A stretch of 64,000 nt of DNA from Eledone cirrhosa (taxonomy: Eukaryota): the NCBI GenBank assembly GCA_964016885.1, contig OZ024764.1, forward strand, positions 7,440,001 through 7,504,000. Direction: 5' to 3'. A program made the position numbers and the translations under genes. Shown one piece after another: positions 516-38,950 of the stretch (its first letter is position 1; each line of letters begins with the position of its first letter). Below the pieces are notes generated by a model. The model made no database searches, had not been told where the DNA came from, and was given only the letters and a program-made list of their open reading frames with translations.

Positions 516-558
516 ATGAGCAGGGGGGGGGGGGGGGTAGAGGGTCTAAAACAAAATA

Positions 559-3500
559 CCTCACTACATCTGGCCTGATTGTGGAGCAGACGTGAATAGT
601 AGGGATGTTGAGGGTAACACCTCACTACATCTGTCCTGACTGAGGAGCAGACCTGAATATTGGGGATGTTGAGGGTAACACCTCACTACATCTGTCCTGA
701 CTGAGGAGCAGACCTGAATATTGGGGATTTTGATGGTAACACCTCACTACATCTGACCTGACAGAGGAGCAGACCCGAATATTAGGGATTTTTAGGGTAA
801 GACCTCACTACATCTGTCCTGACTGAGGAGCAGACCTGAATATTGGGGATGTTGAGGGTAACACCTCACTACATGTCCTGACTGAGGAGCAGACCTGAAT
901 ATTGGGGATGTTGAGGGTAACACCTCACTACATCTGGCCTGAGGAGCAGACCTGAATATTGGGGTTTTTGAGGGTAACACCTCACTACATCTGGCCTGAG
1001 GAGCAGACCTGAATATTGGGGATGTTGAGGGTAACACCTCACTACATCTGTCCTGACTGAGGAGCAGACCTGAATATTGGGGATGTTGAGGGTAACACCT
1101 CACTACATCTGTCCTGACTGAGGAGCAGACCTGAATATTGGGGATGTTGAGGGTAACACCTCACTACATCTGTCCTGACTGAGGAGCAGACCTGAATATT
1201 GGGGATGTTGAGGGTAACACCTCACTACATCTGTCCTGACTGAGGAGCAGACCTGAATATTGGGGATGTTGAGGGTAACACCTCACTACATCTGTCCTGA
1301 CTGAGGAGCAGACCTGAATATTGGGGATGTTGAGGGTAACACCTCACTACATCTGGCCTGACTGTGGAGCAGACCTGAATATTGGGGATTTTGAGGGTAA
1401 CACCTCACTACATCTGACCTGACAGAGGAGCAGACCCGAATGTTAGGGATTTTGAGAGTAAGACCTCACTACATCTGTCCTGACTGAGGAGCAGACCTGA
1501 ATATTGGGGATGTTGAGGGTAACACCTCACTACATCTGGCCTGAGGAGCAGACCTGAATATTGGGGATGTTGAGGGTAACACCTCACTACATCTGTCCTG
1601 ACTGAGGAGCAGACCTGAATATTAGGGATGTTGAGGGTAACACCTTACTACATCTGTCCTGACTGAGGAGCAGACCTGAATATTGGGGATGTTGAGGGTA
1701 ACACCTCACTACATCTGGCCTGACTGAGGAGCAGACCTGAATATTGGGGATTTTGAGGGTAACACCTCACTACATCTGTCCTGACTGAGGAGCAGACCCG
1801 AATATTGGGGATGTTGAGGGGTAACACCTCACTACATCTGGCCTGACTGTGGAGCAGACCTGAATATTGGGGATTTTGAGGGTAACACCTCACTACATCT
1901 GACCTGACAGAGGAGCAGACCCGAATGTTAGGGATTTTGAGGGTAAGACCTCACTACATCTGTCCTGACTGAGGAGCAGACCTGAATATTAGGAATTTTG
2001 AGGGTAAGACCTCACTACATCTGTCCTGACTGAGGAGCAGACCTGAATATTGGGGTTTTGAGGGTAAGACCTCACTACATCTGTCCTGACTGAGGAGCAG
2101 ACCTGAATATTGGGGATGTTGAGGGTAACACCTCACTACATTTGGCCTGAGGAGCAGACCTGAATATTGGGGATGTTGAGGGTAACACCTCACTACATCT
2201 GTCCTGACTGAGGAGCAGACCTGAATATTGGGGATGTTGAGGGTAACACCTCACTACATCTGACCTGACAGAGGAGCAGACCCGAATGTTAGGGATTTTG
2301 AGGGTAAGACCTCACTACATCTGTCCTGACTGAGGAGCAGACCCGAATATTGGGGATTTTGAGGGTAACACCTCACTACATCTGTCCTGACTGAGGAGCA
2401 GACCTGAATATTGGGGATTTTGAGGGTAACACCTCACTACATCTGACCTGACAGAGGAGCAGACCCGAATGTGAGGGATTTTGAGGGTAACACCTCACTA
2501 CATCTGTCCTGACTGAGGAGCAGACCTGAATATTGGGGATTTTGAGGGTAACACCTCACTACATCTGTCCTGACTGAGGAGCAGACCTGAATATTGGGGT
2601 TTTGAGGGTAAGACCTCACTACATCTGTCCTGACTGAGGAGCAGACCTGAATATTGGGGATGTTGAGGGTAACACCTCACTACATTTGGCCTGAGGAGCA
2701 GACCTGAATATTGGGGATGTTGAGGGTAACACCTCACTACATCTGTCCTGACTGAGGAGCAGACCTGAATATTGGGGATGTTGAGGGTAACACCTCACTA
2801 CATCTGACCTGACAGAGGAGCAGACCCGAATGTGAGGGATTTTGAGGGTAAGACCTCACTACATCTGTCCTGACTGAGGAGCAGACCTGAATATTGGGGA
2901 TGTTGAGGGTAACACCTCACTACATCTGGCCTGAGGAGCAGACCTGAATATTGGGGATGTTGAGGGTAACACCTCACTACATCTGGCCTGACTGAGGAGC
3001 AGACCTGAATATTGGGGATGTTGAGGGTAACACCTCACTACATCTGTCCTGACTGAGGAGCAGACCTGAATATTAGGGATTTTGAGGGTAAGACCTCACT
3101 ACATCTGTCCTGACTGAGGAGCAGACCTGAATATTGGGGTTTTGAGGGTAACACCTCACTACATCTGGCCTGAGGAGCAGACCTGAATATTGGGGTTTTG
3201 AGGGTAACACCTCACTACATCTGTCCTGACTGAGGAGCAGACCCGAATATTGGGGATTTTGAGGGTAACACCTCACTACATCTGTCCTGACTGAGGAGCA
3301 GACCTGAATATTGGGGATTTTGAGGGTAACACCTCACTACATCTGTCCTGACTGAGGAGCAGACCTGAATATTGGGGTTTTGAGGGTAAGACCTCACTAC
3401 ATCTGTCCTGACTGAGGAGCAGACCTGAATATTGGGGATGTTGAGGGTAACACCTCACTACATTTGGCCTGAGGAGCAGACCTGAATATTGGGGATGTTG

Positions 3501-6500
3501 AGGGTAACACCTCACTACATCTGTCCTGACTGAGGAGCAGACCTGAATATTGGGGATGTTGAGGGTAACACCTCACTACATCTGACCTGACAGAGGAGCA
3601 GACCCGAATGTGAGGGATTTTGAGGGTAAGACCTCACTACATCTGTCCTGACTGAGGAGCAGACCTGAATATTGGGGATGTTGAGGGTAACACCTCACTA
3701 CATCTGGCCTGAGGAGCAGACCTGAATATTGGGGATGTTGAGGGTAACACCTCACTACATCTGGCCTGACTGAGGAGCAGACCTGAATATTGGGGATGTT
3801 GAGGGTAACACCTCACTACATCTGTCCTGACTGAGGAGCAGACCTGAATATTAGGGATTTTGAGGGTAAGACCTCACTACATCTGTCCTGACTGAGGAGC
3901 AGACCTGAATATTGGGGTTTTGAGGGTAACACCTCACTACATCTGGCCTGAGGAGCAGACCTGAATATTGGGGTTTTGAGGGTAACACCTCACTACATCT
4001 GTCCTGACTGAGGAGCAGACCCGAATATTGGGGATTTTGAGGGTAACACCTCACTACATCTGTCCTGACTGAGGAGCAGACCTGAATATTGGGGATTTTG
4101 AGGGTAACACCTCACTACATCTGACCTGACAGAGGAGCAGACCCGAATGTGAGGGATTTTGAGGGTAACACCTCACTACATCTGTCCTGACTGAGGAGCA
4201 GACCTGAATATTGGGGATTTTGAGGGTAACACCTCACTACATCTGTCCTGACTGAGGAGCAGACCTGAATATTGGGGTTTTGAGGGTAAGACCTCACTAC
4301 ATCTGTCCTGACTGAGGAGCAGACCTGAATATTGGGGATGTTGAGGGTAACACCTCACTACATTTGGCCTGAGGAGCAGACCTGAATATTGGGGATGTTG
4401 AGGGTAACACCTCACTACATCTGTCCTGACTGAGGAGCAGACCTGAATATTGGGGATGTTGAGGGTAACACCTCACTACATCTGACCTGACAGAGGAGCA
4501 GACCCGAATGTTAGGGATTTTGAGGGTAAGACCTCACTACATCTGTCCTGACTGAGGAGCAGACCCGAATATTGGGGATTTTGAGGGTAACACCTCACTA
4601 CATCTGTCCTGACTGAGGAGCAGACCTGAATATTGGGGATTTTGAGGGTAACACCTCACTACATCTGACCTGACAGAGGAGCAGACCCGAATGTGAGGGA
4701 TTTTGAGGGTAAGACCTCACTACATCTGTCCTGACTGAGGAGCAGACCTGAATATTGGGGATGTTGAGGGTAACACCTCACTACATCTGGCCTGAGGAGC
4801 AGACCTGAATATTGGGGATGTTGAGGGTAACACCTCACTACATCTGGCCTGACTGAGGAGCAGACCTGAATATTGGGGATGTTGAGGGTAACACCTCACT
4901 ACATCTGGCCTGAGGAGCAGACCTGAATATTGGGGATGTTGAGGGTAACACCTCACTACATCTGGCCTGACTGAGGAGCAGACCTGAATATTGGGGATGT
5001 TGAGGGTAACACCTCACTACATCTGTCCTGACTGAGGAGCAGACCTGAATATTAGGGATTTTGAGGGTAAGACCTCACTACATCTGTCCTGACTGAGGAG
5101 CAGACCTGAATATTGGGGTTTTGAGGGTAACACCTCACTACATCTGGCCTGAGGAGCAGACCTGAATATTGGGGTTTTGAGGGTAACACCTCACTACATC
5201 TGTCCTGACTGAGGAGCAGACCCGAATATTGGGGATTTTGAGGGTAACACCTCACTACATCTGTCCTGACTGAGGAGCAGACCTGAATATTGGGGATTTT
5301 GAGGGTAACACCTCACTACATCTGTCCTGACTGAGGAGCAGACCTGAATATTGGGGTTTTGAGGGTAAGACCTCACTACATCTGTCCTGACTGAGGAGCA
5401 GACCTGAATATTGGGGATGTTGAGGGTAACACCTCACTACATTTGGCCTGAGGAGCAGACCTGAATATTGGGGATGTTGAGGGTAACACCTCACTACATC
5501 TGTCCTGACTGAGGAGCAGACCTGAATATTGGGGATGTTGAGGGTAACACCTCACTACATCTGACCTGACAGAGGAGCAGACCCGAATGTGAGGGATTTT
5601 GAGGGTAAGACCTCACTACATCTGTCCTGACTGAGGAGCAGACCTGAATATTGGGGATGTTGAGGGTAACACCTCACTACATCTGGCCTGAGGAGCAGAC
5701 CTGAATATTGGGGATGTTGAGGGTAACACCTCACTACATCTGGCCTGACTGAGGAGCAGACCTGAATATTGGGGATGTTGAGGGTAACACCTCACTACAT
5801 CTGTCCTGACTGAGGAGCAGACCTGAATATTAGGGATTTTGAGGGTAAGACCTCACTACATCTGTCCTGACTGAGGAGCAGACCTGAATATTGGGGTTTT
5901 GGGGGTAACACCTCACTACATCTGGCCTGAGGAGCAGACCTGAATATTGGGGTTTTGAGGGTAACACCTCACTACATCTGTCCTGACTGAGGAGCAGACC
6001 CGAATATTGGGGATTTTGAGGGTAACACCTCACTACATCTGTCCTGACTGAGGAGCAGACCTGAATATTGGGGATTTTGAGGGTAACACCTCACTACATC
6101 TGACCTGACAGAGGAGCAGACCCGAATGTGAGGGATTTTGAGGGTAACACCTCACTACATCTGTCCTGACTGAGGAGCAGACCTGAATATTGGGGATTTT
6201 GAGGGTAACACCTCACTACATCTGTCCTGACTGAGGAGCAGACCTGAATATTGGGGTTTTGAGGGTAAGACCTCACTACATCTGTCCTGACTGAGGAGCA
6301 GACCTGAATATTGGGGATGTTGAGGGTAACACCTCACTACATTTGGCCTGAGGAGCAGACCTGAATATTGGGGATGTTGAGGGTAACACCTCACTACATC
6401 TGTCCTGACTGAGGAGCAGACCTGAATATTGGGGATGTTGAGGGTAACACCTCACTACATCTGACCTGACAGAGGAGCAGACCCGAATGTTAGGGATTTT

Positions 6501-9300
6501 GAGGGTAAGACCTCACTACATCTGTCCTGACTGAGGAGCAGACCCGAATATTGGGGATTTTGAGGGTAACACCTCACTACATCTGTCCTGACTGAGGAGC
6601 AGACCTGAATATTGGGGATTTTGAGGGTAACACCTCACTACATCTGACCTGACAGAGGAGCAGACCCGAATGTGAGGGATTTTGAGGGTAAGACCTCACT
6701 ACATCTGTCCTGACTGAGGAGCAGACCTGAATATTGGGGATGTTGAGGGTAACACCTCACTACATCTGGCCTGAGGAGCAGACCTGAATATTGGGGATGT
6801 TGAGGGTAACACCTCACTACATCTGGCCTGACTGAGGAGCAGACCTGAATATTGGGGATGTTGAGGGTAACACCTCACTACATCTGTCCTGACTGAGGAG
6901 CAGACCTGAATATTGGGGATGTTGAGGGTAACACCTCACTACATCTGGCCTGACTGAGGAGCAGACCTGAATATTGGGGATTTTGAGGGTAACACCTCAC
7001 TACATCTGTCCTGACTGAGGAGCAGACCCGAATATTGGGCATGTTGAGGGGTAACACCTCACTACATCTGGCCTGACTGTGGAGCAGACCTGAATATTGG
7101 GGATTTTGAGGGTAACACCTCACTACATCTGACCTGACAGAGGAGCAGACCCGAATGTTAGGGATTTTGAGGGTAAGACCTCACTACATCTGTCCTGACT
7201 GAGGAGCAGACCTGAATATTGGGGATGTTGAGGGTAACACCTCACTACATCTGGCCTGAGGAGCAGACCTGAATATTGGGGATTTTGAGGGTAACACCTC
7301 ACTACATCTGACCTGACAGAGGAGCAGACCTGAATATTAGGGATTTTGAGGGTAAGACCTCACTACATCTGTCCTGACTGAGGAGCAGACCTGAATATTA
7401 GGGATTTTGAGGGTAAGACCTCACTACATCTGTCCTGACTGAGGAGCAGACCTGAATATTGGGGTTTTGAGGGTAACACCTCACTACATCTGTCCTGACT
7501 GAGGAGCAGACCCGAATATTGGGGATTTTGAGGGTAACACCTCACTACATCTGTCCTGACTGAGGAGCAGACCTGAATATTGGGGATTTTGAAGGTAACA
7601 CCTCACTACATCTGACCTGACTGAGGAGCAGACCCGAATATTGGGGATTTTGAGGGTAACACCTCACTACATCTGTCCTGACTGAGGAGCAGACCTGAAT
7701 ATTGGGGTTTTGAGGGTAACACCTCATTACATCTGTCCTGACTGAGGAGCAGACCTGAATATTGGGGATTTTGAGGGTAACACCTCACTACATCTGTCCT
7801 GACTGAGGAGCAGACCCGAATATTGGGGATTTTGAGGGTAACACCTCACTACATCTGTCCTGACTGAGGAGCAGACCTGAATATTGGGGATTTTGAGGGT
7901 AACACCTCACTACATCTGACCTGACTGAGGAGCAGACCCGAATATTGGGGATTTTGAGGGTAACACCTCACTACATCTGTCCTGACTGAGGAGCAGACCT
8001 GAATATTGGGGTTTTGAGGGTAACACCTCACTACATCTGTCCTGACTGAGGAGCAGACCTGAATATTGGGGATTTTGAGGGTAACACCTCACTACATCTG
8101 ACCTGACTGAGGAGCAGACCCGAATATTGGGGATTTTGAGGGTAACACCTCACTACATCTGTCCTGACTGAGGAGCAGACCCGAATATTGGGGATGTTGA
8201 GGGGTAACACCTCACTACATCTGGCCTGACTGAGGAGCAGACCTGAATATTGGGGATTTTGAGGGTAACACCTCACTACATCTGGCCTGAGGAGCAGACC
8301 TGAATATTGGGGTTTGGAGGGTAACACCTCACTACATCAGTCCTGACTGAGGAGCAGACCTGAATATTGGGGATGTTGAGGGTAACACCTCACTACATCT
8401 GTCCTGACTGAGGAGCAGACCTGAATATTGGGGATGTTGAGGGTAACACCTCACTACATCTGGCCTGAGGAGCAGACCTGAATATTGGGGATGTTGAGGG
8501 TAACACCTCACTACATCTGTCCTGACTGAGGAGCAGACCTGAATATTGGGGATGTTGAGGGTAACACCTCACTACATCTGTCCTGACTGAGGAGCAGACC
8601 TGAATATTGGGGATGTTGAGGGTAACACCTCACTACATCTGTCCTGACTGAGGAGCAGACCTGAATATTGGGGATGTTGAGGGTAACACCTCACTACATG
8701 TCCTGACTGAGGAGCAGACCTGAATATTGGGGATGTTGAGGGTAACACCTCACTACATCTGGCCTGAGGAGCAGACCTGAATATTGGGGTTTTTGAGGGT
8801 AACACCTCACTACATCTGGCCTGAGGAGCAGACCTGAATATTGGGGATGTTGAGGGTAACACCTCACTACATCTGTCCTGACTGAGGAGCAGACCTGAAT
8901 ATTGGGGATGTTGAGGGTAACACCTCACTACATCTGTCCTGACTGAGGAGCAGACCTGAATATTGGGGATGTTGAGGGTAACACCTCACTACATCTGTCC
9001 TGACTGAGGAGCAGACCCGAATATTAGGGATTTTGAGGGTAACACCTCACTACATCTGTCCTGACTGAGGAGCAGACCTGAATATTGGGGATTTTGAGGG
9101 TAACACCTCACTACATCTGACCTGACAGAGGAGCAGACCCGAATATTAGGGATTTTGAGGGTAACACCTCACTACATCTGTCCTGACTGAGGAGCAGACC
9201 TGAATATTGGGGTTTTGAGGGTAACACCTCACTACATCTGGCCTGAGGAGCAGACCTGTATATTGGGGTTTTGAGGGTAACACCTCACTACATCTGGCCT
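559..9300. repeat. ~8.7-kb tandem satellite with ~61-bp monomer (57-62 bp variants) and higher-order structure
   Basis: Monomer cctcactacatctgtcctgactgaggagcagacctgaatattggggatgttgagggtaaca, about 140-145 copies. Identical ORF-track blocks recur at 778-bp and 1979-bp spacing. Confidence 0.98.
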
Positions 9301-9496
9301 GTGGTAGAGTAGAACAGACACCAGTGGTTCTCCCAACCATCTCCATATCTTGTATTATAAAATGTAATACGAAACGATAATACGATTAATGTGGGAACCA
9401 CCGGTGACCATTGATATCGCTTTCATAAGAGGTGCCCTGTCTAGTAATTTAGACCGATGCCAGCGATGTAGTTCAATAGTTTTCATTTCTACTCAA

Positions 9497-9506
9497 TATA
9501 TAAAAG
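9497..9506 (+). promoter_or_regulatory. Putative TATA box of the EVE1 capsid unit
   Basis: tatataaaag lies ~30 bp upstream of the ATG at 9530. Confidence 0.5.
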
Positions 9507-9529
9507 CTAGACCTATACGACTTATCATT

Positions 9530-10420
9530 ATGCCCCCTGCTCGCAAGAGAAAGAAGTCAGAAGAAGACCAGCAGCCTAGTACATTAAAAAAAACAAAAAA
9601 AAAACAACAAACACTTCCAAAGAAATATACTGTACCAGGGTACAACTTTCTAGGCCCCGGAACGAACATAAAAAAAAAAAGAAGTAATGGGTAGCGCGAA
9701 ACCGTCTTGACCAAGCTGCTAAAGAACACGATATAGCCTACGGGAATCCTGACATACGAACCTGGTACGCTGACAAGAAATTCATCGGAGAGGTTGTTAA
9801 AAACAGGACCCACTGGAATATTGGCTGCAGCAGCAATCGCAGCAAAGCGTTACACAGGGCTTGATTCATACTTTAGAGGTAGCAACACCGACACTGTTGA
9901 TTCTGGGGTCCCTGCTAATATGGCTAGCATGGAAACGGATGAAGAGTCTCAGAGAGTGGATGGTGGAGGAGGATGGCAAGGTAGACAAATGGGATCTCAA
10001 AAAGAAATACCGACACCCAGTGGTCCACATCGAAGAGAGGTCACATTCGCTAGGAAGTTCCACAACTGTGTAAAAAGTACAGACATGAACTCATCAACAG
10101 GAAATTTTATTACATTGAAAATGGAAGGCGATAATCAGCCACCTAGCTTGAAAGACTCAATGACCAGAGGTAATTGCAGATCTGAAGACTACATAGTACC
10201 ATATTGGTTAACGTCATGGGTAAAACCAATTGAATGGAAGGCACAGGTTAAAATGGCAACATCCTAGAGAATAAAAGAGTCGGGTTTCAAGATATCTAAT
10301 ATTATATGCTCGGAATGGATAGTTTCGAGAGGAGAAGATCAATTCATAAATAATCCACTACCCTATTTTCAGATATATGTTAATAGAGGTCGATACATCG
10401 GATACAACAACCTTAGGGGC
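9530..10420 (+). pseudogene. Endogenous parvovirus/densovirus-like VP1 capsid gene with PLA2 domain; frameshifted and 3'-truncated
   Basis: Basic N-terminus (MPPARKRKK), Ca-binding loop YTVPGYNFLGPGT, then after a frameshift NRLDQAAKEHDIAY...ADKKF (HDxxY at 9727-9741). It continues through a Gly-rich stretch (GGGG), EVTFARKFH and WLTSWVKPIEW, and past a TAG into GFKISNI..NNPLPYFQIY. Confidence 0.9.
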
Positions 10421-10490
10421 ATAACACGGTCACCCTGTCAAAAACGTGCAACATGGCAGAACATTAGATGTAAAAGATAGGGAGGGCCCA

Positions 10491-10498
10491 TATAAATA
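10491..10498 (+). promoter_or_regulatory. Putative TATA box of the EVE1 NS unit
   Basis: gggccca-TATAAATA lies ~50 bp upstream of the ATG at 10544. Confidence 0.5.
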
Positions 10499-11103
10499 CG
10501 CGAGTGGACACTTCGTCAACAAGTAGCCTCTGAACTACCAAACATGATGATACAAGTAAACGGACAACCAAACATGATGGACCAAGAAACAAAGAAACGC
10601 TTCAACGATCCCACCAACACAACCAACCTTACAACATATACTTGGGTATACCGATGGAAGGAGGAGAAAGAATTTACGTGGAGAGAACCAAACTTGTACA
10701 AACACCCCAACCAAGTGATAAAGTACAAGTCATTCAAAGATGAACACGCATTATTATTCCGCCTGCTCCGTATATTTACCTCGATCATAATATACCACCC
10801 TAAAGGACCATCCAGAATTAAGCATTGTGACGACATAGACCATTTCCATATTATTACTTGGCACTCGACTCATCCCTCGAAACAGCACACATTTCAAAAA
10901 CTGAAGAAAACTATTCTGAAAGATGACCCTATAAATGGATATGAGATGGAGGCAGTTAAGATCCAATCACCGGCTGGCTTTAGCGAATATCTACAGAGAT
11001 ATCAACTTATAGCATGCAACAACATAACAAGAACCTCACAACGAAGAATGCTGTCAACAGTAGCAAAAGAAGATTTAACACCAGCTCACACTGAAGAAAT
11101 AAC

Positions 11104-11286
11104 TGTTTCTACTTTAGGCACAAGGGGCCAGCAAATTACCCAGTGCATTACTGGTACTTTATTTTATCGACCCCCGTAAGGATGAAAGGCAAAGTCAACC
11201 TCGGCGGGATTTGAACTCAGATCGTAAAGGGACGTAACTATGCTGCAAAGCATGGCGTCCGACACTCTACCGATACTGCCAATCCA
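11104..11286 (-). mobile_element. tRNA-derived SINE (family A, Meta-domain-like core) inserted in NS1
   Basis: A box tggcagtatcgg, B box gttcaaatcc and core gcctttcatccttacggggtcgataaaat. An 18-bp TSD tcacactgaagaaataac lies at 11086-11103 and 11287-11304. Confidence 0.92.
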
Positions 11287-11415
11287 TCACACTGAAGAAA
11301 TAACGATGAAAATAAAGACAAATGACACGGTCAGAGGAAATAAGTTCAATTTTGTCAAAGACCTTATAAAGAAATGCAATTCGACAGATCTTGGAGACAT
11401 TATTAATTTTGTATG

Positions 11416-11601
11416 AGGGCGATGGATTGGCAGTATCGGTAGAGGGTCGGATGCCATGCTTTCCAGCATAGTTACGTCCCTTTACGATCCGAGTTCAAAT
11501 CCCGCCGAGGTTAACTTTGCCTTTCATCCTTACGGGGTCAATAAAATAAAGTACCAGTAATGCACTGGGTGATTGCTGGCCTTGTGCCTAAAGTAGAAAC
11601 A
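11416..11601 (+). mobile_element. tRNA-derived SINE (family A) inserted in NS1
   Basis: Same family as 11104-11286. TSD attattaattttgtatg / attattcattttgtatg at 11399-11415 and 11602-11618. Confidence 0.92.
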
Positions 11602-11742
11602 ATTATTCATTTTGTATGTACCGCTGGTAAAGAGAACAATGGTGCCACCTAGGATGCCGTGTACCGAAATACTCCGAATCTTTCTTCTTTGTTACAACCC
11701 GCTGCAACACAGCTACAAATAGAGAATCGTATAACTCCGACT

Positions 11743-12708
11743 TGGGAGCAAGTACAAGAGAAACGACTCATGCTCGGTAGCAAGTACAAGAGAAACGACT
11801 CATGCTCGGGAGCAAGTACAAGAGAAACGACTCATGCTCGGGAGCAAGTACAAGAGAAACGACTCATGCTCGGGAGCAAGTACAAGAGAAACGACTCATG
11901 CTCGGGAGCAAGTACAAGAGAAACGACTCATGCTCGGGAGCAAGTACAAGAGAAACGACTCATGCTCGGGAGCAAGTACAAGAGAAACGACTCATGCTCG
12001 GGAGCAAGTACAAGAGAAACGACTCATGCTCGGGAGCAAGTACAAGAGAAACGACTCATGCTCGGGAGCAAGTACAAGAGAAACGACTCATGCTCGGGAG
12101 CAAGTACAAGAGAAACGACTCATGCTCGGGAGCAAGTACAAGAGAAACGACTCATGCTCGGGAGCAAGTACAAGAGAAACGACTCATGCTCGGGAGCAAG
12201 TACAAGAGAAACGACTCATGCTCGGGAGCAAGTACAAGAGAAACGACTCATGCTCGGGAGCAAGTACAAGAGAAACGACTCATGCTCGGGAGCAAGTACA
12301 AGAGAAACGACTCATGCTCGGGAGCAAGTACAAGAGAAACGACTCATGCTCGGGAGCAAGTACAAGAGAAACGACTCATGCTCGGGAGCAAGTACAAGAG
12401 AAACGACTCATGCTCGGGAGCAAGTACAAGAGAAACGACTCATGCTCGGGAGCAAGTACAAGAGAAACGACTCATGCTCGGGAGCAAGTACAAGAGAAAC
12501 GACTCATGCTCGGGAGCAAGTACAAGAGAAACGACTCATGCTCGGGAGCAAGTACAAGAGAAACGACTCATGCTCGGGAGCAAGTACAAGAGAAACGACT
12601 CATGCTCGGTAGCAAGTACAAGAGAAACGACTCATGCTCGGTAGCAAGTACAAGAGAAACGACTCATGCTCGGTAGCAAGTACAAGAGGAACGACTCATG
12701 CTCGGTAG
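11743..12708 (+). repeat. 32-bp minisatellite (~30 copies) amplified from NS1 coding sequence
   Basis: The unit gggagcaagtacaagagaaacgactcatgctc is nearly invariant. Collapsing it to one copy restores WEQVQEKRLMLGSDCN. Confidence 0.97.
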
Positions 12709-13752
12709 CGACTGTAACAGATACTGTCCAGTGAACACAAGCCTCGTCATATATGAACAATGGACATCTTTTCATTGTATCGACCACATAAAATTTGGTC
12801 AAGATTTATTCGATGTATGCCACAAAATCCTGCCAAAGAAAAACACATTACATATCACAGGTCTCCCAAGCAGTGGCAAGAGCTACATTCTTTATAGCAT
12901 AAGAAATGGTTTAATGAATTGTGGCAGAATGAGATGCCAAGCTACAGATAACTTCACTTTCGGTACCTGTGTTGATAAAACTCTCATCTTCACGGACGAA
13001 ATGTGGTTTACAAATACAAATATAGAAGAAGCAAAATGCATCTCGGAGGTAAGTGAAACCTATGTTAATATAAAGCATCAACATGAACAGATCGTGCAGA
13101 GAACACCATGCATCAGTACAGGTAATAGTGACCCATGGGACCGTGTCATGCAAGACGAGGGTGCACTAAAGGCTCGAATGTTCTTATATAATACAAATAA
13201 ACCAATGTCGAAACTCAAAGAATGGGGCCAGAAAGAGTTAAATCCAATGATGTGGCTCACCATATGGCGAGAATACATTAACGACTACACGCATAATAAA
13301 TACATGTCAACAAAATTAGAATCCCTACCAAAAGCAAGCTATTATGAAGAAATGGTTGCCGATTTCTACTCACCAGCGGAACGAATAAATACAAAGAGAC
13401 CAGCGATTGCAAACAAAAATATCAAAGACGAAACAACCAGCAAGAAACTCAAAATTGACGAAACACGCTACCAAAATAAAGATGACGAAATACAGGCATC
13501 AACCTCCGAAATCACGAATAACGAATTAAATTATAACATGGCTAATGATTACTGGGAGACACTACCGTCCGAATGCCACGACAGACCCGTTTGAAGTCAA
13601 CTGCAGAGAAAAGAAACCTGATAGCATCTGTCACCGTGACCTACAATCCAACAGACAATATTGTACTGAACTTGGTACTGCATTTCATCTATGTAACTTT
13701 GATAATAAAACGGATTAAATTTCATTCTTGTCTTGCGTTTGTTATTTCATTA

Positions 13753-15178
13753 GGAATATCCACATTTGTTTCTTTTACAATGATGTTGTGTTTTTCATTC
13801 AGCCATTAATGTCAAGATCCCAACATGGGACTTCATAAATATTTCAGAAATAAATGTCAATATAAATAACTATGGTAAGACAGCTTTAAAACTTACCAAC
13901 AAAAGACAACACTGATATAGAGCTGTTGTTAAGGTCACTTATCACTCAAGTTCCTTATAAAGGTGACACAGCTGTAGAAGTTGAACTGTAAGTTAACAAT
14001 GATCTGGAATATCCACATTTGTTTCTTTTTCATTCAGGCATTAATGTCAAGATCCCACCATGGGTCTTCATAAATATTTCAGAAATAAATGTCAATATAG
14101 ATAACTCTGGTAAGACAGCTTTACAACTTACCAACAAAAGACAACACTAATATAGAGCTGTTAAGGTCACTTATCACTCAAGTTCCTTATAAAGGTGACA
14201 CAGCTGTAGAAGTTGAACTGTAAGTTAACAATGATCTGGAATATCCACATTTGTTTCTTTTACAATGTTTCTTTTTCATTCAGCCATTAATGTCAAGATC
14301 CCACCATGGGTCTTCATAAATATTTCAGAAATAAATGTTAATATAAATAACTATGGTAAGACAGCTTTAGAACTGACCAACAAAAGACAACACTGATATA
14401 GAGCTGTTGTTAAGGTCACTTATCACTCAAGTTCCTTATAAAGGTGACACAGCTGTAGAAGTTGAACTGTAAGTTAACAATGATCTGGAATATCCACATT
14501 TGTTTCTTTTTCATTCAGGCATTAATGTCAAGATCCCACCATGGGTCTTCATAAATATTTCAGAAATAAATGTCAATATAGATAACTCTGGTCAGACAGC
14601 TTTACAACTTACCAACAAAAGACAACACTAATATAGAGCAGTTGTTAAGGTCACTTGTCACTCAAGTTCCTCATAAAGGTGACACAGCTGTAGAAGAAGT
14701 TGAACTGTAAGTTAACAATGATCTGGAATATCGACATTTGTTTCTTTTACAATAATGTTTCTTTTTCATTCAGCCATTAATGTCAAGATCCCACTATGGG
14801 TCTTCATAAATATTTCAGAAATAAATGTTAATATAAATAACTATGGTAAGTCAGCTTTACAACTTACCAACAAAAGACAACACTAATATAGAGCTGTTGT
14901 TAAGGTCACTTATCACTCAAGGTCCTTATAAAGGTGACACAGCTGTAGAAGTTGAACTGTAAGTTAACAATGATCTGGAATATCGACATTTGTTTCTTTT
15001 TCATTCAGCCATTAATGTCAAGATCCCACCATAGGTCTTCATAAATATTTCAGAAATAAATGTTAATATAAATAACTATGGTAAGACAGCTTTACAACTT
15101 ACCAACAAAAGACAACACTAATATAGAGCTGTTAAGGTCACTTATCACTCAAGTTCCTTATAAAGGTGACACAGCTGT
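13753..15178. repeat. Tandem array of ~232-253-bp units (~6 copies, alternating long and short)
   Basis: ggaatatc(c/g)acatttgtttc recurs at 13753, 14006, 14238, 14487, 14725 and 14977. Confidence 0.93.
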
Positions 15179-15179
15179 A

Positions 15180-15650
15180 AAAAATAACGGAGATCCCTAG
15201 CATGGGCGGAGGCTTGTACCAGGACAACGCCCTGCTCATGGTCCGCGGATTCAATAATAGCCAATTAGTTAGACTACACAAACGACTTAGATATATCTTT
15301 AAGACCCAAGGATTAGCGGTAGAAATAGAACCCAACAGTAGGACAGTGAACGTCTTAGACGTCACTTTAGAATTAGACACAGGTGCGACCTCGGCTACGT
15401 TTAACGAGCGCTGGTATAACCACAAAAGCTCCTTTAAACACAGGCCCAAACGATCCCAAACCAGACTGGTGGACTTGATCTGGGACCTCAAAGACAAGAA
15501 CATGGAATACCAGATCAAATGGTCAGTTAAAAGATGCGTGGCCCAACTCCCCAATGACAGAAACCACTGCAGGTTGTGCTTGGCTGAGGCGGCTGAGATC
15601 ATTAAATTGAAATCAGCCATAAACGTTTGCCTATCCGCTAAATACTTAGA
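15180..15650 (+). mobile_element. Internally deleted Penelope-like element (RT fragment joined to GIY-YIG C-terminal fragment)
   Basis: GGLYQDNAL (degenerate GLYRDD), VNVLDVTLEL, then TFNERWYNHKSSF..IWDLKD..IKWS..CRLCLAE. Confidence 0.85.
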
Positions 15651-15994
15651 ATTCCTCCACCTCCCTCCCGACCGGCTTGTCTCCCTTCCCAAAAGGGCAG
15701 TGCACAGCGCAGGCAGGTTCTCAAATTACGAGGAGGTATTCAATACTATGTGGTGGGAAATATTTTGCTGACTAAGATTAATTCTGATTGGATATTAAAA
15801 TATGCTGACGAAATGAAACGTGGCAAAAACAATAGCATATAAATACCATTGCGCGGAAAAATCTGTCACAGAGGCAGAAGGGCCCGCGCTGAAAAGAACA
15901 ACGATACTCCACTGAAACATAAAACCAACAATAATGAATTACGAAGATTTAAAGGCAAGAGATAGCACAATGTTGAACGAACTATCGGTAAGTC

Positions 15995-16490
15995 ATGCCA
16001 TTACATTTACCATTTTATAATTACTGTGGGCCTTACACTAATAACTTTCAAGAGAAACCGATTAACGAATTAGATAACTGCTGCAGACAACACGACTTAC
16101 ATTATGATAAACAAGATATATTAACAGAAGACGCAGATAAAAAATTAATAGACTGTAGTAAGGAAATTAGTGGAGTATCGTCGTTCTTAGGAATATAATT
16201 AAGGCAAAAAATATACTAATGCCTCCTGTCTTTCCTAAAAAAAGAAGAATCGAACAAGAAGAATCGAAAAAAAATCAAGAAGATAGTTGCGACATTTCGG
16301 ATCAAGATTTGATTGACGCAGTTGCACCACAAGACAGCGGAATAAACGAATCTCAAAACATGGGAGATCCTCATGTTGGGCCAGCACCAGGAGGTGCAGC
16401 TCCGATGGCTACAGGAGATCAGCCACCGTCGATAGGAGATAGAAATCCGATAGTAAGCAAAAAATTTTCAAGAACATTCGTACAGAGGAG
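15995..16490 (+). pseudogene. Second endogenous parvovirus-like VP1 fragment with PLA2 domain (EVE2)
   Basis: LPFYNYCGPYT..PINELDNCCRQHDLHY..ADKKLI, then a basic PKKRR motif, a Gly/Ala-rich stretch and SKKFSRTF (compare EVE1 VTFARKF). Confidence 0.8.
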
Positions 16491-16540
16491 CAAGCAGCTG
16501 GCAGGTCGCTTGTTCCTCTCCTCCTTTTTTTGACATAATA

Positions 16541-17015
16541 GTTGTTTCTACGTTAGGCACAAGGCCAGCAATTACCCAGTGCATTATGGAGGCACATGGC
16601 TTAGTGGTTAGAGCATTGGCCTTGCAATCTAAAGATTGTGAGTTCAATTCTCAGACCGGGTGATGTGTTGTTTCCTTGAGCAAGACACTTTATTTCACAT
16701 TGCTCCAGTTTACTCAGCTGTAGAAATGAGATGATAGGGACTGAGGTCCCTATCATTCCACTGCAAAGTGGTCGTGGAGGTGCCACGGCAAAAAAGCACC
16801 CAGCACTCACTGTAAATGAGGTTGGTGTTAGGAAGGGCATCCAGCTGTAGAAATCAAGCCAGCATCAGTTCCCGTCCCACCCTTGCAAGCAGGGAAAAAG
16901 CGGACGTAAAATGAAATGATGATGATGATGATTACTGGTACTTTATTTTATCGACCCCGTAAGGATGAAAGGCAAAGTTAACCTCGGCGGGATTTGAACT
17001 CAGAATGGCAAGTTC
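16541..17015 (-). mobile_element. SINE family A copy interrupted by a nested family B SINE
   Basis: Family A halves at 16541-16587 and 16933-17015. TSD tgacataata at 16531 and 17016. Confidence 0.85.
16588..16932 (+). mobile_element. tRNA-derived SINE family B with RTE-derived 3' tail
   Basis: A box tggcttagtgg, B box gttcaattct, core ccttgagcaagacacttt, and tail cccacccttgcaagcagggaaaaagcggacgtaaaatga(tga)n. Confidence 0.9.
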
Positions 17016-17381
17016 TGACATAATAATAAACTGTAGACACACCAGGAAGAGCACCTTCTCCGCCCAGACATTCAGCCATGTGCCAAGGACTAACCCCGAC
17101 TTGAACTCAACATAGGGATAATCAGAAATGCCTTACCACACCGTCCCTCATTTCAGTACCACTGTTTTCTCTGTGAACAAATTTTTTTTTATATTTTGAA
17201 GTGAATGTGACCTAATGGGTCACAGATGGCCTCGTGTATATATATACTTTGCTCCTATTTTCACGGAGATATTCTTATTTTTGTATTGTATGTGTATGTA
17301 AATTTATATATATATATATATATATATACATATATATGTATGGCTTTATAACTCCATATACAAATAGTTGAGCTCTTTTTC

Positions 17382-19836
17382 TTGTCCATTATCCATATCA
17401 CAATGGAAAAACAATACTTGGGAACTTCTTTAAAGAATATACCATTACCTTCTAAGGATGATTTCTTACTTCTTATGATACAAAAAACCAACCAATTTAT
17501 CAGAAGAGTCAGATGGAGGGCCTACCACTTCGATAAAAAATCAAAATGTACAGATAGGAAATATCTGTATGATTTCACTACATATAAAAATCCACCACAC
17601 AACTCTCTACTTGAAAACTTTGAGAAAGACCTTTTTAATTTAATCAAACACCTCAAATTTAAGAGGTATAAATCTAACTTTCAAAAGGACCTTCATTCTA
17701 CCCTATTGGACCTAAAAAAATCCATGTCCACTCGGACAAAACTGGAAACTTATATCACATGGATATTGAAAATTACAACGAGTTCATATATAAGGAACTC
17801 AGGAAAAATTATAAAAAAACAAATAATGCGTCACTTACCAACATCAACAACAAAACACACAGCATAGTGAATAGACTTAATATTGAAGATAGAACTGAAC
17901 CTTTGGCATTGAAAAGACCACACTTCAACCTGAAAGATCATAAATCAAACTTTAACTATAATCCTTCTATAAGACTTATATGCCCTTCCAAATCCGATAT
18001 TGGAATAATTAGTAAAAAAATTTTAGATAGAGTCGTCCCACAAATAAGAAAATATGTTAATTTACCACTCTGGGAAAACACATCCCAGGTAATTAACTGG
18101 TTTAATAATATTAGATATAAATCCTCTGCTTCAATTTGATATAGATAATTACTATTCTTCTATATCACCTATACTCCTGAACAAAGCCTTGATATTTGCT
18201 AAAAATAGATCTAACTTAACTTTGGATGACATTAATATTATTACACATGCTAGACTAACACTACTGGAATTTCAGAATGAATACTGGACCAGAAACACAT
18301 ATAGTAATCTATTTGATATTACTATGGGCTCAAGCGATTCTGCCCAAATTACTGATCTTGTGGGCCTCTTTCTTCTTTTTAACATAAATGCTTCCTTTCC
18401 CCACCTTAAAGGTGGTTTATATTGTGACGACTGTCTTCTTCTTTCCAATAACCTTAGCCTCCCAGAGATAGAAAAAAACAAAAAGCTTATTAGAACTTTC
18501 CTTAAAGACTATTATAGTCTAGATATTACATTTGAAAACACAAGTAAAGTAGTTAATTTCCTAGATATAACAGACTTATCTACGGGTATCTACCAACCTT
18601 ACCATAAACCCAACCAAAATTTACACTACATACACTCACAATCTAATCACCCTAAATCTATCCTTAAAAACCTTGCATATAATATATCACTTAGAATTTC
18701 TAACCTTTCGTCTAACCAAGATGTATTTGATAAAAATGCGACCTTTTATAACGAAGCTCTAGCTAGAAGTGGCCACAAAAATAGATTGGAATATATACCT
18801 TCTACCAATAACACTACAAACATACAACCTAATATTACCAACAAACACCAAATGAAACGTACACACCTAAATGCCACTCACACTATACCCCAAAATACCA
18901 ACATAAAACCAAATTTCTCTAACTCCTCTAATATACAGTATAGTAACTCTCAAAAAACTACTCATCCTACAACTCTAATAAATGTTAATAATAAAACTCC
19001 TAATAAACAAGCTAAAACACCTAAATCAATAAATCTAACTAAAAATGTGTGTGGAGAGGTCATTAACAATAATTCTCCTAGTAAACATCAGGATGCATCC
19101 TATAAAAACAATAAACAACATAGAAACCGTAATAGACGAGTTACTTGGTATAATGCTCCATTTAATTTACAAGTTAAGGATAATATACCTAAAAAATTCT
19201 TTAATATCCTAGAGAAAAACTTCCCGCCAAACCACAAATACCATCAAATCTTAAATAGATCAACAGTTAAATTCTCATACTCAACAACCAAAAACATAAA
19301 ACAAAATATAAGTGCCTATAATGCATATAAATGTAAAAAAACCCATAAGTATACCACCAATACATCAAACTAGCCATAATATCTCCTCAAATACAGGATT
19401 AACGAAAAGTTGTAACTGTAGAAACAAGGCAAACTGCCCATTAAAAGGAAATTGCCTTGTTAATAACATAGTATATAAATGTAAAGTTAACACTAAGGAC
19501 TCTATTTGTTCATATATAGGAGCTACTTCTAACAATTTTAAGGTAAGATTTAATACCCACAAACATAGTTTTAAAAATGCCGCACTAGCTAATACAACAT
19601 CTCTAGCAGAAAAAATTAATAGTTATAGAAAGAGGAATATAGAATATGACATGACCTGGAGTGTGCTCAAAAGAGCCACCCCTTATCAAAATAGTAGAAA
19701 TGAATGTAGATTGTGTTCCCCAGAACTTTTCGAAATAAGGAAATCTAAGGATATCCTATTAAATAAGCGACAGGAATTAATAATATCGTGTAATCATAAA
19801 CTGAGAAAAACATTTAAATATTATAAACCTAATTAA
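17382..19836 (+). mobile_element. Near full-length Penelope-like retroelement ORF (RT + C-terminal GIY-YIG), frameshifted
   Basis: LKDHKSNF..P.IRLICPSKSDIG, QFDIDNYYSSI, FDITMGS.D.AQI.DLVG, GLYCDD, SNHP, WYNAPF, CNCR...CPL.G.CL, IVYKC..YIG..FK.RF..HK.SF and CRLC..E. Confidence 0.93.
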
Positions 19837-21726: not shown

Positions 21727-21799
21727 ACTTTTTTTTGTTTAATATAAGGAACTGTTTCTTTGTTGATTCATTATTTTTTTAATAATTTATATATATATA

Positions 21800-22740
21800 T
21801 AAAGGCCTTTGATAGGGTACCCCGATCTGTCATCTGGTGGTCCCTAAGGAAGCTGGGTGTTGAGGAATGGCTTGTGAGGACAGTGCAAACTTTGTACAGA
21901 GGTACTCTCAGTAAAGTCAGGGTAGGAATGGAGTTTAGTGAGGAATTCCAGATACAAGTAGGAGTACATCAGGGTTCGGTCCTCAGCCCGCTCTTGTTCA
22001 TTATAGTCCTCCAAGCCATAACAGAGGAGTTTAAGACTGGCTGTCCATGGGAACTTCTCTATGCTGACGATCTGGCTCTTATGGCAGAATCAGTAGAGGA
22101 GCTAGAGAATAAATTCCGGCTATGGAAACAGCAGTTGGAAGCAAGAGGACTGAGAGTAAATCTAGCTAAGACAAAAGTGTTGATGAGTAGAAAAGAGGAC
22201 AAAACCCTGATTCCGTCAGGGAAATGGCCATGTTCGATATGCAGAAAAGGAACTGGCATAAATTCTATAAAATGCACACAATGCAGGTCCTGGGTACACA
22301 AGAGATGTAGCGGGATAGCAGGCAAACTAACAGGTAGGGAGAAATATGTATGCAGTAGATGTACAGGGAAATTAGACAGTAGAAGTCGCATGTGCGTGAA
22401 CGACCCAGCATAAATGTGTTGAGAGAGAAACTGTGTCTGAGAGGGATAGAATGTAGTGTACGGGAGAGGAGACTGAGGTGGTATGGACATGTGATGCGCA
22501 TGGAGGATGACCGATGGGTGAAGAAGTGCCAGGAAATGCCAGTTGAAGGAAGACGTGGTAGAGGTAGACCACGAAAAACATGGGCGGAGGTGGTGAGAAC
22601 AGACCTCAGATCATTGAAGCTCACGGTGGAGATGATGAGGGACCGTGACGAGTGGAGAGATGCTGTGCTGAATAAGATCCGTCCCACCCTTGCAAGCAGG
22701 GAAAAGCGGACGTAAAATGATGATGATGATGATGATGATA
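21800..22740 (+). mobile_element. RTE-clade LINE 3' fragment, internally deleted
   Basis: KAFDRVPR, GVHQGSVLSPLLF, LLYADDL, RRLRWYGHVMR and GRGRPRKTW, ending in a (tga)n tail. Confidence 0.93.
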
Positions 22741-35994: not shown

Positions 35995-37750
35995 GTTGGT
36001 GAATTGGCAGAATCGGTAGAGGGTAAGACGCCACGTTTTGCAGCATAGAGTTACGGCCCTTTATGATCTGAGTTCAAATCCCACCGAGGTTCACTTTGCC
36101 GTTCATCCTTACGAGATCGATTAAAATAAAGTACCGGTCACGTACTGGGTCGATTTAATCGACCCCCCCTCCCTCCAATTACTGGCCTTGTGCCTATACT
36201 AGAAATCATAAGAGGGGTGGGTTGGCAATATCGGTAGAGGGTCGGACGCCATGCTTTGCAGCATAGAGTTACGGCCCTTTATGATCTGAGTTCAGATTCA
36301 GCCAAGGTTAACGTTGCATTTCACCCTTAAAGGGTCAATAAAATAAAATACCAGTCACGTACTGGGGTCGATATAATCGACTTTCCCCTCCCCCAAAATT
36401 GCTGGCCCTGTGCCTATATAAGAAACCGTTATTTGGCAGTATCGGTGGAGGGTCGGAGACCATGCATTGCAGCAAGAGTTACCTCCCTTTATGATCTGAA
36501 TTCAAATCTTGCCGAAGTTAACTTTGCTTTTCATCCTTACTGAGGGGGGGGGGGGGGGGGGGGCGATAAAATAAAGTACCAGTAATACACTAAGATAATT
36601 GCTGGCCTTGTGCCAAAAGTAGAAACAATTATTATTATTATTATTTGGCAGTATCGGTAGAGAGTCGGACGCCATGCTTTCCAGCATAGTTACGTCCCTT
36701 TACGATCTGAGTTCAAATCCCGCCGAGGTTGACTTTGCCTTTCATCCTTACGGGGTCGATAAAATAAAGTACCAGTAATGCACTGGGTTATTGCTGGCCT
36801 TGTGCCTAAAGTAGAAACAATTATTATTATTATTAGGGCGGTGGATTGGCCGTATTTTGTAAAGGGTCGGACGCCATGCTTTGCAGCATAGTTACGTCCC
36901 TTTACGGTCCGAGGTCAAATCCCGCCGAGGTTAACTTCGCCTTTCATCCTTACGAGGTCGATAGAATAAAGTACCAGTAATACACCGAGATAATTGCTGG
37001 CCTTGTGTCAAAAGTAGAAACAATTATTATTATTATAACTTTTGTGGTATGTGAGCGGAAATGATGTGCGCATCCCTAAGTACGCGAAGAATTTTTAATT
37101 GTTTTTCCTATGAAAGTATTTACAACCTGTTGATGGTGGACATTAGTGAATCAGATGATTTGTGGAGGAATGTAACAGCAGACCTTTTATTATATTTATC
37201 GGTAGAGGGTCGGACGCCATGCTTTCCAGCATAGTTACGGCCCTTTACGATCTGAGTTCAAATCCCACCGAGGTTGACTTTGCCTTTCATCCTTACGGAG
37301 TCGATAAAATAAAGTACCAGTAATGTACTGGGGTAATTGCTGGCCTTGTGCCCAAAGTAGAAACAATTATATTCAAAAGTCTCGTCTCACATATTACAAT
37401 AAATCTAAATTTCAAATAAACAACTCATCGGGCATCAGTTCTCGCAAGCCGGCACAAGGCCAGCAATTATGCCAGAGTATTACTGGTACTTTATTTTATC
37501 GACCGGCGTAAGGATGAAAGGCAAAGTTAACCTCGGCGGGATTTGAACTCAGAACGTAAAGAGCCAGAACTCTATGCTGTAAAGGATGGTGTGTGACGCT
37601 CTAGCGATACTGCCAATTCACCGCCCAGACTTTTAATAATTGTTTCTACGTTAGGCACAAGGCCAGCAATCACCCAGTGCATTACTGGTACTTTAATAAT
37701 TGTTTCTACTTTTGGCACAGGGCCAGCAATTACCCAGTGCATTACAATAT
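35995..37750. mobile_element. Cluster of ~8 family A SINEs, mostly head-to-tail
   Basis: Repeated tggcagtatcggtagagggtcggacgccatgc..gttcaaatcc..gcctttcatcc..agaaacaattatt. Plus strand to ~37370, minus strand at 37450-37745. Confidence 0.9.
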
Positions 37751-38689
37751 AATATAGATAGATATAGTTATTCATTAGAAATTAGATATCTATATACAAT
37801 TTATACATCGTAATTTAGATAATCTATATACAATTTATACATCGTAATTTAGATAATCTAGAATAAAGTTGTTTATTTGTGTTGTTGTTAAAATCTGTTT
37901 AATTTGAGATATTTGAGACAATATACTGGACAATGGAATATCAATGTCTGACTTGCAACAACTAAAGTTTTCATTTTAATTAAAGGCGGGTTAATTACAC
38001 ATGATCACCATAACTTTTTATATTTCCAATAATGAAAGAAATACGAAAATATATTTGTGATGTGAGAAGTGAGAAGTTTTAACATAAATCTACAATATTT
38101 GTAGACATAATACTTACATTATTTCATAGAAATACCAGTAATGTACTGCGTAATTTGATGGCCTGGTGACAAAAGTATAAACAATTATTTCAGAGAAATG
38201 CCGCCAAGGTTGACTTAGCCTTTCATCCTTACGGGGGGTCGATAAAATAAAGTACCAGTAATACACTGAGTTATGCTGGCCTTGTGCCTAAAGTAGAAAC
38301 AATTATTTCATAGTTTCAGGTCTTTAAACCAACAGCGACATTTTTTTCGTGATGTTTCGTTGAAAGACAATCACTTTCTGAGCAGACGGACGTGGGAAGG
38401 GGGGGGGGGGACTATCTACTGCGCATGTATCTGAGGAAAGAACACTCCTTTTCCTTCTTTCAATGGATTCCATTTTGCAACGTGGCTCATAGCTTTCTTT
38501 CCACGTCACCCTATCTACTCTGGGAAGTTCAAATACGGTGTTTTCCCCATATATAACACAAGTCATATCAATTTTACTTTTAAAATGGCGCTACTGTTTA
38601 TAACCTAAAACTATCGTTATACTGTTGTCAAAAATAAATAAAAGATATATATTATACAGGGTGGTCACTACTATATATTATTTTAATAA

Positions 38690-38950
38690 TATAATTGTTT
38701 CTACTTTTGGCACAAGGCCAGCAAATACCCAGTACATTACTGGTACTTTATTTTATCGATCCCCATAAGGATGAAAGGTAAAGTTAACCTCGGCGGGATT
38801 TGAACTCAGAATGGCAAGGGCCGTAACTCTATGCGTCAAAGCATGGCGTCCAACCCTCTACCGATACTGCCAATGCCCTAATATATAATTGTTTCTACTT
38901 TAGGCACAAGGCCAGCAATTACCCAGTGCATTACTGGTACTTTATTTTAT
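38690..38950 (-). mobile_element. Family A SINE copies
   Basis: Same consensus on the minus strand. Confidence 0.85.

Follow-up and report, generated by a model that had tools for sequence, protein, structure and literature searches.

An endogenous parvoviral NS1 gene of Eledone cirrhosa in four pieces, interrupted by two SINEs and a tandem array

Introduction

Do the parvovirus-like stretches that lie close together in the genome of Eledone cirrhosa belong to one broken replication gene, what broke it, and which came first, the virus or the interruptions? They lie in a window of 64,000 nucleotides (the whole stretch of DNA that was analysed; contig OZ024764.1, positions 7,440,001 to 7,504,000), for which a preliminary description proposed that an NS1 gene rebuilds in one frame after the removal of three dated insertions. 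Genomes of the Parvoviridae have palindromic terminal hairpins and a jelly-roll capsid gene, often with a PLA2 in VP1, and their NS1 has an N-terminal HUH endonuclease domain. In the accessible part of PMC13426907, NS1 is also described as carrying an SF3 helicase domain, and endogenous parvoviral elements as typically defective, with insertions, stops, and deletions.

Results

Four pieces of one NS1 gene

The window contains an A-rich parvoviral block with its genes on the + strand, bounded by a 61-bp array (end 9301) and a 235-bp array (start 13753). Within this block, an endogenous parvoviral NS1 gene occupies 10544-13594; an antisense SINE, a sense SINE, a 30.2 x 32-bp array, and an in-frame stop (11650) break it, and four pieces of it are left. 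Piece A (10544..11103, +), the HUH nuclease domain and a linker, shows 36% identity over 166 residues to P0001, an uninterrupted relative of 568 residues that was the sole return among 472 candidates in a search of longer proteins. Piece B (11287..11415, +), which ends in the left copy of the second target-site duplication (TSD2, 11399-11415), shows 66% over 29 residues (P0001 198-226); piece C (11602..11743, +), which holds the right TSD2 copy (11602-11618), shows 47% over 36 residues (P0001 246-281); and piece D (12710..13594, +), the SF3 helicase and C-terminal tail, is open to a stop at 13592 and shows 57% over 209 residues. Compared singly, the four pieces are colinear on P0001, at residues 10-173, 198-226, 246-281, and 276-484, and the change in reading phase between neighbouring pieces is explained by inserted DNA at all three places. 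Twenty of the 153 fetched proteins, with P0001-P0003 forming one cluster within this count, match at least two NS1 pieces, always in the expected order. The proposal that NS1 rebuilds as one gene minus three insertions is thus borne out, no failure of the alignment with parvoviral NS1 was met across the junctions, and the single TAG expected in the rebuilt frame lies in piece C at 11650. The N-termini of two relatives suggest that the start codon may be at 10574 instead of 10544.

Piece D matches the Pfam family Parvo_NS1 (PF01057) with E 9.8e-17 and 61 bits against a cut-off of 20, and its SF3 helicase has PDB matches to parvoviral NS1/Rep. Its frame stays open over 305 codons, Walker A and Walker B are both present, and the relatives' alignment extends to about 13580. 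A frame at 13560-13720 (+) that overlaps the NS1 stop has a Cys/His-rich stretch; the relatives have a Cys/His cluster near their C-termini, and their matches to this frame are weak (E 0.03-0.7). Piece A is open for ~200 codons and its predicted model has a pLDDT of 86. The HUH histidines H90/H92 are near-invariant among the relatives, and all seven matches of the model in BFVD at E<=0.001 are parvoviral NS proteins. Against the PDB the model gives middling scores: plasmid RepB, circovirus Rep, and AAV5 Rep reach Z about 5, no better than unrelated folds do; Foldseek returned nothing in the PDB at E<=0.001 and Pfam gave no match to an HUH endonuclease domain.

Relatives of the gene

A library search with P0001 gave 1109 proteins at E<=0.001. 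The profile search returned 64 of 3710 candidates, namely 62 Logan proteins and two proteins of the cuttlefish Acanthosepion pharaonis (P0192 and P0196, on contigs of 0.85 and 1.5 Mb), which are the only named close relatives. Only two of the 93 close relatives reach 450 residues, as expected for broken elements or short contigs. In a quick tree of 50 rows, drawn from 128 matches covering at least 150 residues (three near-duplicates dropped, about 75 distant rows left out) and built without classified parvovirus references, piece D falls in a 23-row clade with an SH-aLRT of 100. The informative relatives belong to this unnamed clade, whose helicase is ~45-65% identical to piece D. Scans of IMG/VR confirmed none of three and none of 74 candidate stretches, and our literature searches found no description of this locus.

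Two SINEs and their duplicated targets

SINE 1 (11104..11286, - strand) is antisense and slightly 5'-shorter than SINE 2 (11416..11601, + strand), a sense copy of the same family; the two differ from the window majority at 5/166 and 6/166 core bases, respectively, and from each other at 9/166. SINE 1 is flanked by the direct repeat TSD1 (left copy 11086..11103, + strand; right copy 11287-11304), identical at 18/18 positions, so the 18-bp duplication claimed for it was found as described. For SINE 2 a flanking repeat is likewise present (copies at 11399 and 11602), but the 17-bp duplication proposed is imperfect, matching at 16/17, and its true length is uncertain because its first six bases coincide with the ATT tail of the SINE as read in sequencing reads. 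Both lengths are above chance: pairs of 40-nt viral stretches, drawn at random 2000 times with 200 nt between them, had no exact word longer than 10 nt in common. In the alignment of the 93 close relatives, the TSD2 copies both map to P0001 225-229; the TSD1 copies map to 185-190 and 188-193, in a poorly conserved, loose linker. We rejected the TSD2 mismatch as a clock; it is a single change beside the tail overlap.

The target-site duplication, high copy number, and simple 3' tail of a SINE retroposon are all seen: blastn gave 23 or 24 rows of the family in the window, both SINEs included, and the reads show a very deep pile-up with ATT-rich loose ends. Motifs resembling A and B boxes are visible in the head, and the family looks like octopus SINEs; no tRNA match was found at the two copies with Rfam and none with ARAGORN. 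According to the accessible part of PMC8967140, SINEs make up ~40% of transposons in octopuses and <1% in Euprymna, in line with an octopus as the probable host. Among the 15 joints listed of 911 read joints, none came from a SINE-free allele, which does not amount to a test. Elsewhere in the window, copies of the same family are crowded at 36000-38950, where those at 36559-37036 form a tandem run with a period of about 202. A copy of the first family is split into halves at 16537-16586 and 16931-17004 by an element of another kind (16587-16930), the head of which is tRNA-like (Rfam tRNA, 32 bits, 16597-16654).

A 32-bp array made from NS1 coding DNA

The array between pieces C and D (11744..12709, +) has a period of 32, 30.2 copies, and 99% matches. 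Unit 1 and the final unit fall on the same residues of P0001, 276-285, which places the array inside NS1 as the preliminary description had it. The unit has no match elsewhere in the window. Unit 30 is followed by six bases that agree with the start of the unit at 5/6, and the units recurrently vary only at the base that differs; both points fit an array seeded by slippage between two imperfect repeats. Array growth is ordinary here, given that 17 long-period arrays cover 33% of the window. The arrays abutting the viral block consist of 145 x 61 bp (within 558-9301) and roughly 6 x 235 bp (within 13753-15180), and neither unit has a match elsewhere in the window. An 86-bp array at 1-258 appears to be amplified from Penelope-like coding DNA, as the NS1 array from NS1. 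The fragments at 1-360, 15181-15771, 17352-19836, and 47383-47796 resemble Penelope-type retroelements; they have no Pfam or PDB match, and two of them match each other (E 3e-5). A LINE fragment, RVT_1 followed by a PHD finger, lies at 21748-22413 (+).

Order and age of the events

Since the duplicated targets and the array unit are viral coding DNA, the sequence shows that the virus predates both SINEs and the array. In the proposed succession of virus, then SINEs and array, the virus-first part stands on the mapping of TSD2 and of the array unit, but the order among the three later events is not shown by it. Calling the insertions dated goes too far: over a 166-base core the SINEs diverge from the majority of 14 window copies by 3.0% and 3.6%, and the Poisson limits are about 1-8%. 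Both are among the four least diverged of the 14 copies, the others differing at 6-14%. Taking SINE divergence as a minimum age is unsafe, as a majority of mixed subfamilies inflates the figure. With the octopus rate of 2.4e-9 per generation and 1.5 years given in the accessible part of PMC13669787, and within the same Poisson limits, the divergence translates into 9-23 million years, a range valid only with that rate and inflated by mixed subfamilies; we infer an age of the order of 10 million years, if the octopus rate applies. In the read rows listed, five clear departures from the family majority are seen in SINE 2, against about two, with two small indels besides, in SINE 1, which hints that SINE 1 may be the younger copy. 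Array units 3-27 are identical, which at 1% divergence per site has a probability of 3e-4. The turnover of the array thus appears later than the SINEs: it was amplified or homogenised after their arrival, unless assembly polishing smoothed the units, and this concerns its last turnover, not its birth.

Decay of the gene

Among 146 family-conserved columns (conserved in at least 85% of relatives in the alignment of the 93), the window NS1 differs at 27: 6/34 in piece A, 3/13 in B, 7/14 in C, and 11/85 in D. In the helicase the window departs at 8/81 conserved columns, rank 38 of 57 rows (P0001 at 2/78), and in the nuclease region of piece A at 9/38, rank 23 of 26 rows; motif B' of the helicase is altered at two well-conserved columns. 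The open 305 codons, together with the 8/81 departures and their rank, suggest that decay of piece D is modest. Its branch in the quick tree is long (0.75), so viral divergence before integration is not separable from later decay, and part of the 27/146 departures and of the branch may be viral and older than integration. What is recovered is not the ancestral replicase that had been suggested: 27/146 conserved columns differ, motif B' included, and a stop is present. As it now reads, the locus cannot encode a working NS1, because stops and phase shifts separate the nuclease and helicase parts.

The probable capsid gene and gene order

Upstream of NS1 lies what is probably a broken capsid (VP1) gene (9533..10570, end approximate, +) with a split PLA2-like motif, A-runs, and stops at 9692, 10265, 10478, and 10493. 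The PLA2-like halves score 17.9 and 14 bits against PF08398, below the cut-off of 23.9. Searches with the window VP were blank among 1581 candidates and in the PDB, and weak in the Atlas; it is matched by the VP of the metagenomic locus L003, and weakly by residues 95-172 of the 445-residue capsid of the metagenomic locus L001 (E 9e-4), which in turn matches the PmMDV capsid (E 1.9e-8). A single-sequence fold of the L001 capsid had a pLDDT of 29 and was not used. After the matched part, ~50 codons are left before NS1, compared with 273 in L001, so the window VP has probably lost its 3' half. A 26-nt repeat of 81% lies at the VP/NS1 boundary (10534 and 10564).

TATA-like boxes precede VP and an AATAAA follows NS1. 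The probable viral upstream region (9302..9532, +) has two such boxes (9356 and 9497) and no significant hairpin (fold z -1.9, with 9/200 shuffles folding equally well); the 3' region (13595..13752, +) has AATAAA at 13704, a T-rich tract, and no hairpin (z +1.05). As palindromic terminal hairpins were found at neither end, we file the element as a derived element and not as a whole viral genome. Neither a capsid start 3' of NS1 nor an NS1 tail 5' of VP was found in the window.

The capsid gene comes first on one strand in two of four metagenomic loci (L001 and L002, with nine bases between the genes in L002); L003 is NS-first and L004 is too short for a capsid to show. None of these loci has terminal overlaps hinting at a permuted circle. 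At L001 1409-1733 an NS1 frame is open for ~108 codons before the first ATG and weakly matches piece A, which suggests a non-ATG or spliced start for that NS1.

A second viral fragment

A second, dissimilar PLA2/capsid fragment lies at about 15800-16535 (+), with an intact-scoring PLA2 (PF08398, E 1.7e-11) that is identical to the first at 14/29 positions. A TATA-like box precedes it, the PLA2 is followed by a frame change and then a capsid N-terminus, and the fragment is cut off by a SINE end at 16537. Upstream of it there is no NS1 match, and within the 64-kb window we found no second copy of the viral element.

Read support

Piece D is present in full in four runs of one study, perhaps the source of the assembly; the indexed runs with piece D include no listed RNA run, which is neutral on expression. 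Reads were placed on 9310-11743 only. One contig of run X1 spans 9310-11124 with one difference, and one of run X2 spans 11264-11441, piece B included, with no difference. Run X1 has 88 million letters of contigs and a depth of 23 on 9310-11124; X2 has 1381 million and a depth of about 8; the depth of X1 is not counted as expression. Contigs overlap into the SINEs by 21-26 bases, against a 31-base bridging rule, and at 11688-11743 depth is zero in all four runs, a hole that proves nothing. RAD reads of two samples of a second study (X5 and X6) cover 10786-11031 and start at 11013/11016, at the SphI site 11012; the viral DNA is thus germline. Two apparent variants at 9814/9817 in X5/X6 were discounted, because the reads there match only in part and over a short length, at a PstI site.

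Discussion

The locus is very probably a decayed endogenous parvoviral element. It shows insertions, stops, and deletions, and it sits in host DNA, with host SINEs inside and a LINE reverse transcriptase nearby. In the succession that we propose, a cephalopod-linked parvovirus lineage would have entered the germline as a single capsid-plus-NS1 block, which would then have decayed as ordinary, presumably neutral, host DNA. A host SINE of very high abundance would have retrotransposed into NS1 twice, with a duplicated target each time, and a 32-bp NS1 stretch between two imperfect 6-bp repeats may have been duplicated by slippage and then grown to 30 copies. The viral block would also have gathered point changes, stops, and slips in its A-runs.

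What genome the virus had is a separate matter. The element may come from an undescribed lineage of cephalopod parvoviruses whose genome was monosense and had the capsid first, in the order promoter, PLA2-VP, NS1, poly(A) signal, a possibility we hold tentatively and with more doubt than belief. In its favour are the TATA-like boxes before VP, the AATAAA 3' of NS1, the lack of a capsid start 3' of NS1 and of an NS1 tail 5' of VP, the second window fragment, which likewise starts with VP, and the recurrence of the capsid-first order in two of the four metagenomic loci. Against it, L001 and L002 lie outside the window's clade, L003 is NS-first, and the window VP seems cut short at the NS1 start, so that a deletion in a head-to-tail NS-VP concatemer of an ordinary genome, a fair rival, would give the same capsid-first picture. 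Capsid-first is the reverse of the usual parvovirus order. The accessible part of PMC13426907 describes parvovirus genomes as monosense or ambisense and gives no capsid-first order; a capsid-first monosense order was likewise not found in the literature within reach, weak proof with most subscription papers outside it. The virus of PMC12297876 is ambisense in the accessible part of that source and not relevant.

The decayed-element reading also has to be weighed against readings that concern the locus as a whole. It is very unlikely that either the nuclease domain (piece A) or the helicase (piece D) was domesticated and is translated alone: piece A is open and folds confidently and piece D keeps its Walker motifs over an even longer frame, but the nuclease ranks near the bottom of its rows at conserved columns, motif B' of the helicase is changed, and open stretches of such length would be expected without selection at a few percent divergence. 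We consider it hardly credible that the array or SINE junctions are assembly artefacts, or that contaminating virus was joined to host DNA. The identical units 3-27, the read placement that stops short of the array, the short bridging into the SINEs, and the single study behind the four indexed runs, which may be the assembly's own source, would all agree with an artefact; misassembly, however, does not make proper target-site duplications of viral coding DNA, over the left part the contigs of X1 and X2 show no more than one difference each, and the viral part is present in two samples of another study. A dead gene kept as a source of antiviral small RNA, in the manner of a piRNA cluster, is rather improbable but less easily dismissed, with two unrelated viral fragments 2 kb apart among arrays and retroelements, and with EVE clusters and EVE piRNAs reported in shrimp (accessible parts of PMC9357335 and PMC11357303). 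Both fragments, however, are sense and on the same strand, and a repeat-rich region under low constraint would be expected to show such clustering anyway; the small-RNA reading can stand alongside a decayed element and does not exclude it.

The decayed element is of use beyond its own history. Scored as present or absent in related species, its two SINE insertions could serve to date the integration, and a dated integration could calibrate the large unnamed NS1 clade, of which 93 close relatives were fetched. The locus ties the NS1 of this clade to a probable capsid gene, and the capsid-first order, if native, would add to the genome layouts known among parvoviruses. The array offers a clear example of how foreign coding DNA gave rise to a minisatellite, and relatives show what the sequence was before amplification.

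Compared with known systems, AAV Rep and the NS1 of PDB 9kbj/9kbg have the SF3 helicase in common with piece D (E 8e-7 to 9e-6), and AAV5 Rep has an HUH-type fold like that of the piece A model (Z 4.9, rmsd 4.4, 119 aligned). The structural comparison with AAV Rep put forward in the preliminary description thus gives a match, but one tied with unrelated PDB folds; as a yardstick AAV Rep is homologous but distant (E about 1e-6, as also for B19-type NS1), and like 9kbj/9kbg too distant to test the NS1 junctions, which are better read on the ~45-65% clade. L001 and L002 have the capsid upstream of NS1 on the same strand, as in the window; however, they are uninterrupted, their helicase is only 25-32% identical to that of the window and lies outside its clade, and their capsid ORFs have no PLA2 match. 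Closest are the Logan NS1 clade (P0001, P0164, P0166, and others) and the cuttlefish proteins P0192 and P0196, with 57-62% identity over piece D; the Logan clade also has the nuclease region in common with piece A, and the two cuttlefish proteins, found by profile search, were not among the rows of the quick tree.

Cephalopod sequences of this kind are listed in the accessible supplement of Francois et al. 2016 (PMC5013282): genomic NS pieces of Octopus bimaculoides, one with an adjacent transposable element, a transcript of O. vulgaris, and ESTs of Sepia officinalis and Euprymna scolopes. Judged by eye, the Sepia and Euprymna rows have helicase wording as in piece D, and the two O. bimaculoides rows look more distant from it. 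The same source, as far as accessible, places mollusc parvovirus-related sequences outside known genera and reports degraded copies, carrying stops or lying next to transposons, from 22 further invertebrate species. Its cephalopod rows are short fragments, whereas here the whole NS1 span is present, with part of VP and insertions with target-site duplications. Parvoviral fossils split by transposons are therefore a known class, with cephalopod cases listed since 2016, and the main oddity of the present locus is the probable capsid gene ahead of the replication gene.
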